64,000 nt of DNA, taken from NCBI RefSeq assembly GCF_055900595.2, contig NZ_CM148325.1, one strand, 5' to 3'. The translations under genes and the position numbers were made by a program. Below, one piece after another: positions 33,302 through 35,161 of the stretch. The notes beneath the pieces were generated by a model. The model saw only the letters and a list, made by a program, of their open reading frames with translations. It was not told where the DNA came from and made no database searches. The stretch's first letter is position 1; each line of letters starts with the position of its first letter.

Positions 33302-35161
33302 ATGATAATAACTTCGCCGTTTAAACCCAATGTGCTGGTGCTTATTTGCAGTGCCGGGCTTTGTGCCGCCTCAGCAGGGCTATATATAAAAAGCCGCACG
33401 CCAGATACCCCCGTCCAACCAGTGCCCGTTGTTGCCACCGTGGCAACAGCCCCACAAATCGGGGAGCAACCGACACCAGTTCCTCCAGCAACGCCTGCAC
33501 CAGAAGTAACGGCAACCCTACCACTTACGCCTGCCAGTACCGCTGAAGTGAAATCGACTTTTACCACTGCGCAAATTGACCAGTGGGTCGCGCCAATTGC
33601 GCTTTATCCTGATGCTTTGCTATCACAAGTATTGATGGCAGCCACTTATCCAACCAATGTGGCACAGGCAGTTCAGTGGTCACGAGATAATCCGACAAAA
33701 CAGGGTGATAATGCTATTCAGGCCGTTTCTGACCAACCCTGGGATGCCAGCGTAAAATCGCTGGTGGCTTTTCCGCAACTGATGGCATTAATGGGCGAAA
33801 ATCCGGAGTGGGTGAAAAATCTTGGTGATGCATTCCTGGCACAACCGCAGGACGTCATGGACTCAGTACAGAAATTACGTCGCCTGGCACAGCAGACCGG
33901 ATCGTTAAAATCAACCGTGGAACAGAAAGTTGTGACCACAACCCGGAAAGCTGCGCCGGTAAAATCTCATGAATCGGAAAACCAGGACACGACGTCTGTC
34001 GCCAGTACAACAACCATTATTACCCAGCCAGATCCCGAACCGACTATTATCACCATTGAGCCAACGAAACCGGACGTAATTTATATTCCAAACTATAACC
34101 CCTCCGTAGTTTACGGAAGCTGGGAAAATACGGCTTATCCACCCGTTTATTTGCCACCACCAGCAGGCGAACCGTTTGTTGATAGCTTCGTGCGCGGCTT
34201 CGGTTACAGCATGGGTGTTGCCACAACGTATGCCTTATTCAGCAATATCGACTGGGATGATGATCATCACGATCATCATCATCATGATGACGACGATCAC
34301 CATAACCACAACGACGACTATCGGGACGGGAAAGCCTGGCAGCATAACGGCGATAATATCAATATCAACGTCAATAATTTCAACCGTATCACGGGCGAGC
34401 ACCTTACTGACAAGAATATGAGGTGGCAGCATAATCCAAATTACCGTGACGGCGTGCCTTACCATGATCAGGATATGGCAAAACGTTTTCATCAAACAAA
34501 CGTCAATGGTGGTATGAGCACCACACAGCTGCCAGCACAGTCTCGCGATATCCAGCGCCAGGAGGCAGCGAGTCAATTTCAACAGCGGACGCACTCTGCA
34601 CCAGTGACCATGCGTGATACACAACGTCAGGCTGCTTCACAGCAATTTCATCAGCGGGAGCAACAGGATGATTTTCGTGATTATGCTCTGCCCCGCCGTA
34701 ACAGCAACACTTCACGTTTTGATGGCGAATACCACAACCGTGAAGACGGGAATGTTCGCCCACCGCAACGCCAGTTAACTCAACAACAGCGGGAGAAAGC
34801 CCGTAAGCGTTATGATTCTGCGACACCTGAGCAGCGCCAGGCGTTTCGTGAGAAAGTTCAGAACCAGCAACGACCGTTGAGTCAGCAGCAAAGGGATAGC
34901 GCCCGCCAGCGTATTCAATCGGCCTCGCCTGAGCAGCGTCAGGCTTTTCGGGAGAAAGTTCAGAATCAGCAACGACCGCTGAGCCAACAGCAAAGGGATA
35001 GCGCTCGCCAGCGAATTCAGTCAGCAACACCTGAACAACGTCAAGTCTTTCGCGAGAATCGCTTGAATGACACCAGCCGCGTCTCCAGACTTAGTAGTGA
35101 GCAACGCTCAGCAGTACGGGAACGTCTCTCTGAGCGCGGAGCAAGGCGACTGGAAAGGTAA
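33302..35161 (+). CDS. yacH: Uncharacterised DUF3300-family protein YacH with Pro/Thr-rich linker, His/Asp tract and Gln/Arg-rich tandem repeats
   Basis: 619-aa ORF; N-terminal hydrophobic segment; low-complexity regions visible directly in the translation. Confidence 0.85.
   Translation: MIITSPFKPNVLVLICSAGLCAASAGLYIKSRTPDTPVQPVPVVATVATAPQIGEQPTPVPPATPAPEVTATLPLTPASTAEVKSTFTTAQIDQWVAPIALYPDALLSQVLMAATYPTNVAQAVQWSRDNPTKQGDNAIQAVSDQPWDASVKSLVAFPQLMALMGENPEWVKNLGDAFLAQPQDVMDSVQKLRRLAQQTGSLKSTVEQKVVTTTRKAAPVKSHESENQDTTSVASTTTIITQPDPEPTIITIEPTKPDVIYIPNYNPSVVYGSWENTAYPPVYLPPPAGEPFVDSFVRGFGYSMGVATTYALFSNIDWDDDHHDHHHHDDDDHHNHNDDYRDGKAWQHNGDNININVNNFNRITGEHLTDKNMRWQHNPNYRDGVPYHDQDMAKRFHQTNVNGGMSTTQLPAQSRDIQRQEAASQFQQRTHSAPVTMRDTQRQAASQQFHQREQQDDFRDYALPRRNSNTSRFDGEYHNREDGNVRPPQRQLTQQQREKARKRYDSATPEQRQAFREKVQNQQRPLSQQQRDSARQRIQSASPEQRQAFREKVQNQQRPLSQQQRDSARQRIQSATPEQRQVFRENRLNDTSRVSRLSSEQRSAVRERLSERGARRLER
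34817..35060 (+). repeat. Tandem 102-bp coding repeat, about 2.4 copies, inside yacH
   Basis: Units start at 34817, 34919 and 35021 and encode S-A-T/S-PEQRQAFREKVQNQQRPLSQQQRDSARQRIQ with only a few substitutions. Confidence 0.8.

Follow-up and report, generated by a model that had tools for sequence, protein, structure and literature searches.

The 64,000-nucleotide stretch of DNA analysed here (the window; contig NZ_CM148325.1 of NCBI RefSeq assembly GCF_055900595.2) carries the yacH gene of Escherichia fergusonii, which encodes a DUF3300-family protein and is kept intact by purifying selection. Comparison of yacH loci showed that Escherichia has lost a neighbouring DUF2950 partner gene together with a motif in the YacH tail. 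We propose, at a probability of roughly 45%, that YacH is a periplasmic protein linked to envelope stress, with a metal-binding loop resembling that of ZnuA and a helical, polycationic tail, and that it acts by a mechanism that we infer.

YacH is encoded in nearly every E. coli genome yet lies within the uncharacterised 'y-ome', and the DUF3300 family, with about 9,400 representative clusters (9,448 at E ≤0.001), has no studied member; a literature search found no paper characterising DUF3300 or DUF2950. Because a 99% identical E. fergusonii protein is on record and the gene is an orthologue of yacH, it had been catalogued before as an uncharacterised DUF3300 protein, and the finding as first stated in an initial annotation of the window is not new. 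To that annotation the present analysis adds purifying selection on the repeats, an absent partner gene, extreme divergence, the lack of a structural relative and the co-loss of the tail motif with DUF2950. Current knowledge is not overturned, and a neglected protein is made testable: its predicted periplasmic architecture, DUF2950 as a candidate partner, a candidate contact motif and the ZnuA-like loop offer starting points. Escherichia would serve as a natural experiment because partner and motif have both been lost there.

Identity and architecture of YacH

The initial annotation described a 619-residue open reading frame (ORF) with an N-terminal hydrophobic segment and a Pro/Thr-rich linker, with which the ORF list, hydropathy and composition agree, and named its product YacH with a DUF3300-like region. 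Pfam analysis revealed a full-length DUF3300 match (PF11737, E 3.1e-78, residues 89–348, model positions 2–227 of 227), and the gene sits between acnB and lpdA, as in E. coli K-12, with collinear sequences; both results uphold the identification. The translation of the ORF at 33302–35161 matches the quoted protein sequence. The best match in the AlphaFold database was B7LVX9 of the E. fergusonii type strain (99% identity), and the closest protein cluster, again at 99% identity, comprises 171 members and bears the name E. fergusonii. An identical yacH locus occurs in eight complete genomes with an E. coli label. At yacH and acnB these match the window with 99% identity or more, and one of them, NZ_CP098223.1, is also identical to it at panBC and ftsA–ftsQ. 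These eight genomes are probably E. fergusonii under the wrong species label.

K-12 YacH has the same anchor, linker, head, Asp/His tract, SPEQRQ repeats and RGARRLER end, with amino acid identities of 74% overall and 89% in the core. It differs in carrying four SPEQRQ units of 32–34 residues, compared with two full 34-residue units in the window protein, and the N-linker and mid loop are not reliably alignable between the two. Synonymous sites of the two genes have reached saturation (dS about 2.4–2.5), with neighbouring genes at about 0.1. The coordinates of the features are summarized in Table 1.

Table 1. Features of yacH and its flanks in the window
Feature	Position	Strand	Basis
acnB–yacH divergent intergenic region	32948..33301		identity to K-12 79–86% from 33100 on
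yacH coding sequence, 619 aa + stop, E. coli b0117 orthologue	33302..35161	+	ATG start, ORF list
Predicted Sec signal peptide, residues 1–25 (K8; hydrophobic core 11–22; ASA/G)	33302..33376	+	hydropathy, sequence reading, homologues
Pro/Thr/Val/Ala-rich spacer, residues 33–84	33398..33553	+	composition
Helical subdomain of DUF3300 head, residues 85–215	33554..33946	+	pLDDT 95–98, eight helices
Thr/Ser/Ile-rich variable loop, residues 216–247	33947..34042	+	pLDDT 66–68
Pro/Tyr-rich strands and Gly-rich segment (VIYIPNYNP...GFGYSMGVATTYALFSNIDW), residues 248–318	34043..34255	+	pLDDT 86–95
Asp/His tract DDDHHDHHHHDDDDHHNHNDD, residues 319–339	34256..34318	+	predicted disordered surface loop of head, pLDDT <50
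Conserved segment past the Pfam model (NININVNNFNR...WQHNPNYRDGVPYHDQDMAKRF), residues 350–400	34349..34501	+	pLDDT 84–94
Gln/Arg-rich basic tail, residues 401–619	34502..35158	+	net charge +18, pI 11.5
Repeat unit 1 (DSATPEQRQAFREKVQNQQRPLSQQQRDSARQRI)	34814..34915	+	Tandem Repeats Finder, in-register alignment
Repeat unit 2 (QSASPEQRQAFREKVQNQQRPLSQQQRDSARQRI)	34916..35017	+	Tandem Repeats Finder, in-register alignment
Partial repeat unit 3 (QSATPEQRQVFRE)	35018..35056	+	Tandem Repeats Finder, in-register alignment
Hairpin with flanking A-run and T-run, between convergent yacH and lpdA	35174..35202		fold statistics

The sole strongly hydrophobic 19-mer of the protein starts at residue 11 (residues 11–29; Kyte-Doolittle hydropathy 2.16), and an ASA/G site after residue 25 was read directly from the sequence; alternatively, the segment may stay uncleaved and serve as an anchor up to residue 29. 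Distant DUF3300 members begin with cleavable signal peptides (AXA sites) or lipoboxes. By comparison with these family signals, YacH would be exported by Sec and either cleaved after residue 25 or anchored by residues 11–29, and the remainder of the protein would therefore lie in the periplasm. The envelope association proposed initially is consistent with these homologous signals, with the signal peptide of DUF2950 and with the ASA/G site, whereas the nucleic-acid binding offered alongside it is not favoured because YacH is predicted to be extracytoplasmic.

An AlphaFold2 model of the window protein, built on a 112-sequence family alignment, contained three blocks of high confidence (predicted local distance difference test, pLDDT): residues 85–215 (95–98), 245–320 (86–95) and 350–400 (84–94). 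In the model these make up one head, bigger than the Pfam DUF3300 model, with a net charge of -18 and broken up by two low-confidence loops, residues 216–247 and the Asp/His region at about 319–349. Residues 85–215 contain most of the invariant columns of the family and have a ratio of non-synonymous to synonymous substitution rates (omega, dN/dS) of 0.02–0.04 within Escherichia. Residues 248–318 were modelled as strands, not helix, with P257, Y261, Y265, P267, Y271, G272, W274, G305 and W318 near-invariant, and residues 350–400 (omega 0.03) contain the near-invariant W375, H377 and R382. The variable loop at 216–247 has an omega of 0.3–0.5 and 59% nucleotide identity to K-12. The spacer at 33–84 (13 Pro, 10 Thr, 8 Val and 8 Ala among 52 residues) was modelled with a pLDDT of 53–65 and shows a dN of 0.66–0.72 against K-12, with 14 gap positions.

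The head fold has no counterpart among solved structures, and sequence searches of solved structures with the window protein, the 112-sequence profile and a DUF2950 protein gave no meaningful match. All of the 50 AFDB50 fold matches listed are DUF3300 or unnamed 'membrane protein' entries, bar one generic label. Profile searches of YacH against NCBIfam, PADLOC and PHROGs found no match, including none to an anti-phage or phage family.

The Gly-rich segment at residues 296–318 bears on whether YacH is instead a type I membrane protein in which this segment spans the inner membrane and a cytoplasmic tail binds RNA, DNA or ribosomes. The segment is glycine-zipper-like and looks membrane-like in many homologues (Kyte-Doolittle 1.6–2.1 over 17 residues), and the Arg-rich tail is in keeping with the positive-inside rule and recalls RNA-binding motifs that are rich in arginine. 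However, its hydropathy is only 0.8–0.96 in Escherichia, AlphaFold packs it as strands inside the head (pLDDT 86–87) with residues 350–400 in the same domain (84–94), and a tail motif is ordered in a fusion model with periplasmic DUF2950 (described below). On the strength of the modelled strands and the low hydropathy, a transmembrane Gly-rich segment was rejected for Escherichia, and we consider the type I arrangement very improbable.

The Asp/His cluster of the initial annotation was recovered at residues 319–339, where 19 of 21 residues are Asp or His compared with 6.9% in the rest of the protein (binomial P ~1e-20). Among the Enterobacteriaceae YacH proteins listed, 17 of 17 carry the tract (3–11 His, 6–12 Asp), always right behind a conserved (L/I)DW motif. 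The YacH tract (DDDHHDHHHHDDDDHH) is much alike in composition to the loop DDDDHDH...DEDHHH of ZnuA (E. coli b1857), a periplasmic zinc-binding protein whose His-rich loop has a zinc-binding role. In each protein a disordered loop rich in Asp and His interrupts a globular domain, which is periplasmic in ZnuA and predicted to be so in YacH, whereas the host folds are unrelated and no transporter is linked to yacH. By this analogy, metal binding by the YacH loop is plausible.

A stronger claim would give YacH a dedicated role as a buffer or chaperone for metals in the periplasm, centred on the tract, as its retention in all 17 proteins, its close likeness to the ZnuA loop and the acidity of the head might indicate. 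The tract is, however, an Enterobacteriaceae-specific loop insertion; most wider-family members are without the loop and have 0–2 His at its position. Its length drifts between strains, neither a metal transporter nor a metal regulator adjoins yacH, and a metal buffer leaves the conserved core and the basic tail unexplained. We regard this role as unlikely.

Length variants of the tract are always in frame, and at the DNA level the tract is built of imperfect repeats with triplet and 12-bp units (1.9–7.7 copies, 75–90% match); with such repeats and variants, phase variation via the tract was not supported. A single deletion event of 8 bp in the tract, which shifts the reading frame, has turned yacH into a pseudogene in S. 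Typhimurium UK-1, 14028s, SL1344 and D23580 (PMC3391293, PMC10048834). The yacH gene of E. coli strain SW071611 (NZ_CM129855.1) is broken by an IS1A element.

The repetitive tail and the DUF2950 partner

AlphaFold2 predicted tail helices at residues 412–450 and 492–573 (pLDDT 70–87), those through 492–573 each of about 14 residues. The Gln/Arg-rich C-terminal half with 34-residue repeats, as first described, was confirmed by Tandem Repeats Finder (period 102, 2.3 copies, 34823–35058, score 332). Units 1 and 2 are identical at 32/34 residues and 87/102 bases, the 15 differing bases comprising 12 synonymous and 3 non-synonymous changes (Nei-Gojobori dS 0.97, dN 0.038). Because the differences are mostly synonymous, the duplication is old and its peptide conserved; it is therefore neither an assembly artefact nor recent slippage. 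An artefact, a concern raised in the initial annotation, is likewise contradicted by the eight complete genomes and the 171-member cluster.

Each 34-residue unit corresponds to two helices, with seven half-units at residues 493, 508, 527, 542, 561, 576 and 598; L(T/S)xxQ at residues 492, 526, 560 and 597 marks four half-unit starts, from which helices are predicted. Comparison of repeat copy number across strains, as suggested at the outset, revealed variation: a 584-residue E. fergusonii variant is short of exactly one unit, and E. coli YacH proteins of 585–662 residues carry three to five or more units plus other internal duplications, with at least seven yacH length classes in 60 sampled E. 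coli genomes. Omega in the repeats was 0.06–0.2.

The tail helices recall those of CpxP, Spy and ZraP, which also open with LTxxQ or LTPEQ (LTPEQQAVLNEK in CpxP and LTPEQKKQFNAN in Spy, compared with ATPEQRQAFREK, LTQQQREKARKR and LSQQQRDSARQR in YacH). A periplasmic location, predicted for YacH, and a link to Cpx are further points in common. The YacH units differ: they are arrayed in tandem, are much more basic and follow a large domain that is unrelated. A blastp comparison gave E 0.036 in a three-sequence database, and homology of the tail units to the LTXXQ family is unproven.

Distant DUF3300 members have in common the helical block, PxVVYVPxYNP...YPP strands, a Gly-rich segment ending in W, DxNINVN, WxHxPxHRxGVxYRD and a basic Arg/Gly-rich tail ending GGGGRR, and basic tails occur across the family. 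In four unrelated contigs (L003, L004, L005 and L008) the DUF3300 gene is directly followed, on its own strand, by DUF2950 (PF11453), and these partners also carry signal peptides. In root-nodule bacteria the DUF3300–DUF2950 pairing has been reported to be universal; both proteins have signal peptides there, and neither has a known function (PMC4653623).

A scan of species-representative genomes gave 28 Enterobacteriaceae yacH loci. DUF2950 lies directly after yacH in Citrobacter, Atlantibacter, Buttiauxella, Pseudescherichia, Yokenella, Enterobacter, Hafnia, Rahnella and S. enterica subsp. arizonae, and it follows yacH in all but one non-Escherichia Enterobacteriaceae locus; the gene order is acnB, yacH, DUF2950, lpdA wherever the fetched sequence reaches both flanks. 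In the window, tblastn with four DUF2950 proteins found no such gene. Seven enterobacterial queries detected no DUF2950 remnant in the yacH–lpdA gap of the window, K-12, UTI89 or E. albertii, and no Escherichia-named entry is found within the best 120 DUF2950 clusters.

The YacH tail follows the same division. Genera that keep DUF2950 retain the tail motifs NNYRGYD and AFSGNDSRSPSWQxQQxRGxxSR, both of which are missing in the three Escherichia species, where arrays of S(A/T)(S/T)PEQRQ units occur instead. The C-terminal motif (A/T)FxGxxxRxxSW...RGxxSR, present in non-Escherichia tails and distant homologues, does not occur in the window, in any of the five E. coli alleles inspected or in E. 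albertii. These comparisons show that Escherichia has lost its DUF2950 partner together with the tail motif. Set against the DUF3300–DUF2950 unit, window YacH has the full-length DUF3300, a predicted export signal, NINV...WxHxPxHRxGVxY and a basic tail; it differs in the absence of DUF2950 and of both motifs, in a Gln/Arg-rich tail of long tandem units, where that unit has an Arg/Gly-rich tail ending in GGGGRR, and in the added Asp/His loop. When the last 80 residues of Citrobacter YacH were joined by a Gly/Ser linker to mature DUF2950 and modelled with AlphaFold (19 paired sequences), PNWQSQQQRGQESRRLSNVS became a helix with a pLDDT of 84–85, its flanks remaining below 41.

Two further loci showed individual features. 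The DUF2950 of S. enterica subsp. arizonae (L027, 5594–6367) has a different C-terminal end, with 144–227 residues aligning, and may be degrading in parallel with the S. Typhimurium yacH pseudogenes. The yacH–lpdA gap of E. albertii is 750 bp long at the place where other genera carry DUF2950; it contains, on the minus strand (L016, 5989–6261), an ORF of about 86–90 residues unrelated to DUF2950, whose product starts signal-peptide-like (MKAFLTTVVLTAAVFSGMAVAADP).

Divergence of yacH and selection on it

Nucleotide identity to K-12 was 91–100% in acnB and 95–100% in lpdA but only 53–85% across about 33100–35100; over the opening 100 bases of yacH it is 90%. Between the window and K-12, yacH has a dS of 2.39 (proportion of synonymous differences, pS, 0.72, saturated) and a dN of 0.179, compared with a median dS of 0.109 (maximum 0.575) and a median dN of 0.0014 (maximum 0.025) for the other 41 orthologues, and it is the strongest divergence outlier in the 50-kb core region. 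Within E. coli, the dS of yacH is about 1x to 3x that of acnB, whereas against E. fergusonii it is 10–14x. Over 246 gap-free core codons of yacH, E. coli pairs with E. albertii (dS ~1.0) and E. fergusonii falls outside (saturated), in conflict with acnB, which groups E. coli with E. fergusonii.

Omega was 0.02–0.04 in the core and 0.3–0.7 in the linkers and never exceeded 1 in any segment, and yacH is thus maintained by purifying selection; positive selection was not supported. A foreign origin was not supported by composition either, the GC content of yacH being 0.515 and that of the window 0.516.

These values bear directly on whether YacH is a functionless relic of the loss of DUF2950, decaying in Escherichia, with repeats and divergence produced by neutral drift. 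Loss of partner and motif, the S. Typhimurium pseudogenes, the IS1 insertion in E. coli, and a deletion mutant that is viable with mild phenotypes all point that way. They are opposed by the low omega of the core between Escherichia species, by repeat copies that hold 32/34 residues despite their dS of 0.97, and by the 5370 of 5426 E. coli genomes in which 80% or more of K-12 yacH is matched at a single site, and such decay appears highly doubtful.

The sharply bounded island, with its dS of 2.4 against a neighbour median of 0.11, could also reflect a surface-exposed or secreted YacH, with phage or host recognition driving allele divergence and changes in repeat copy number. The length classes among E. 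coli genomes, the variants in repeat and Asp/His length, the pseudogene in four S. Typhimurium strains (PMC3391293), the IS1 insertion in one E. coli and a prediction of extracellular location quoted in PMC9600279 are consistent with such exposure. However, the divergence is mainly synonymous, with omega below 1 in every segment and the fastest change in the linkers; neither Pfam nor AlphaFold revealed a beta-barrel, an autotransporter or any further module for secretion or the outer membrane, and there was no PADLOC or PHROGs match. Recognition at the surface is accordingly an improbable cause.

The window is a mosaic when compared with E. coli: ftsA–ftsQ matches 5181 E. coli genomes at 99% identity or more and panBC matches 5315 at only 90–95%, and within 14775–62800 ppdD, ftsQ and ftsA have a pS of 0.01–0.02 against E. 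coli. This suggests E. coli–E. fergusonii gene flow in parts of the region. Four candidate explanations of the island stand side by side: flanks homogenised by inter-species recombination with yacH refractory, an old allele held by selection, replacement from an unsampled relative, and a local excess of mutation. In a further reading, which we consider unlikely, yacH would be a species-barrier locus whose alleles resist the E. coli–E. fergusonii gene flow that evens out the remainder of the region, and whose product was rebuilt as a self-sufficient periplasmic factor. After the loss of DUF2950, the tail would consist of tandem Spy/CpxP-like LTXXQ hairpins and the head would carry a zinc-type loop, and lineage-specific selection by cationic peptides, phage or host factors might hold species-specific alleles. 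In practical terms, yacH could serve as a sensitive species or lineage marker, and its divergence hints at unusual evolutionary pressure on an envelope protein.

Proposed envelope role and flanking sequence

In published work, a yacH deletion mutant outlives the wild type under protamine, protamine represses yacH partly via CpxR, and yacH rose 3.9-fold in one of two Cpx-activating conditions (the cpxA24 mutation or NlpE overproduction); a prediction quoted in the same paper lists YacH as extracellular (PMC9600279). In a rob deletion strain under butanol stress, yacH was about 16-fold lower (log2 fold change -4.06; PMC7537768). Ampicillin induces the yacH promoter (PMC8865558), a cathelicidin peptide causes a modest rise in yacH (PMC6737244), and the yield of recombinant green fluorescent protein increased in a yacH deletion (PMC7376861). 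In a DNA-damage screen, a conjugation genome-wide association study and a regulatory-landscape preprint, yacH was just a control or an untested candidate.

In the periplasmic envelope-stress role that we propose, the 52-residue Pro/Thr spacer would tether a compact alpha/beta head (residues 85–400) with two floppy loops, and the Asp/His loop would most likely bind divalent cations weakly, as the ZnuA His-rich loop does. The last 220 residues would form a polycationic tail (+18) of about seven helices of 15–19 residues, opening with L(T/S)xxQ or (T/S)PEQ and paired into hairpins, each 34-residue repeat being one hairpin. Such a tail might bind anionic envelope material or unfolded clients, and YacH would be a charge-bearing protein, linked to envelope stress, that modifies sensitivity to cationic peptides. 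The ancestral protein may have worked with the periplasmic DUF2950 encoded just downstream; in Escherichia, where DUF2950 and the tail motif that probably contacted it were lost, the repeats would have expanded instead.

Several results weigh against this proposal. Upstream of yacH in the window, neither a CpxR box (GTAAA-N5-GTAAA) nor a marbox was found with up to two mismatches, and marbox counts across the window were at chance level. The tail helices are nearly devoid of a hydrophobic face (muH 0.17–0.38) and in isolation may be disordered. The Pfam LTXXQ model did not match YacH even at E 10, and hhalign against CpxP, Spy and ZraP gave a probability of 20% (E 0.0011) over small alignments. 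Docking of the tail motif on DUF2950 fits the fusion model, which yields confidence values and not contacts, and a Hafnia-like lineage (P0122) without an adjacent DUF2950 has kept the motif, an exception to the co-loss. The Asp/His loop cannot be the core function, because it is missing from most of the wider family.

No sigma-70-like site was found on the plus strand upstream of yacH. Downstream, lpdA is convergent with yacH at a distance of 71 bp. The hairpin between the two genes has a minimum free energy of -15.1 kcal/mol (z -5.0), with 0 of 200 shuffles folding equally well, and is conserved in K-12; it is likely a bidirectional terminator. In UTI89 (L012, 5059–5300) the yacH–lpdA gap measures 242 bp, compared with 70–71 bp in K-12 and the window, and the extra sequence resembles a REP-type (repetitive extragenic palindromic) element.

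Elsewhere in the window, the yacL–acnB intergenic region (30200–30400) is 64–72% identical to K-12, with gaps, unlike the adjoining genes. A short element past panC, in the panC–rpnC intergenic region (about 16530–16566), has a median of 7 matches per E. coli genome, like a dispersed repeat. Away from yacH, Rfam matches above the gathering score were obtained for tp2, naRNA4, STnc40 and PssrA, at 41555–41668 (+), 52942–53019 (-), 53535–53604 (-) and 59251–59340 (-).

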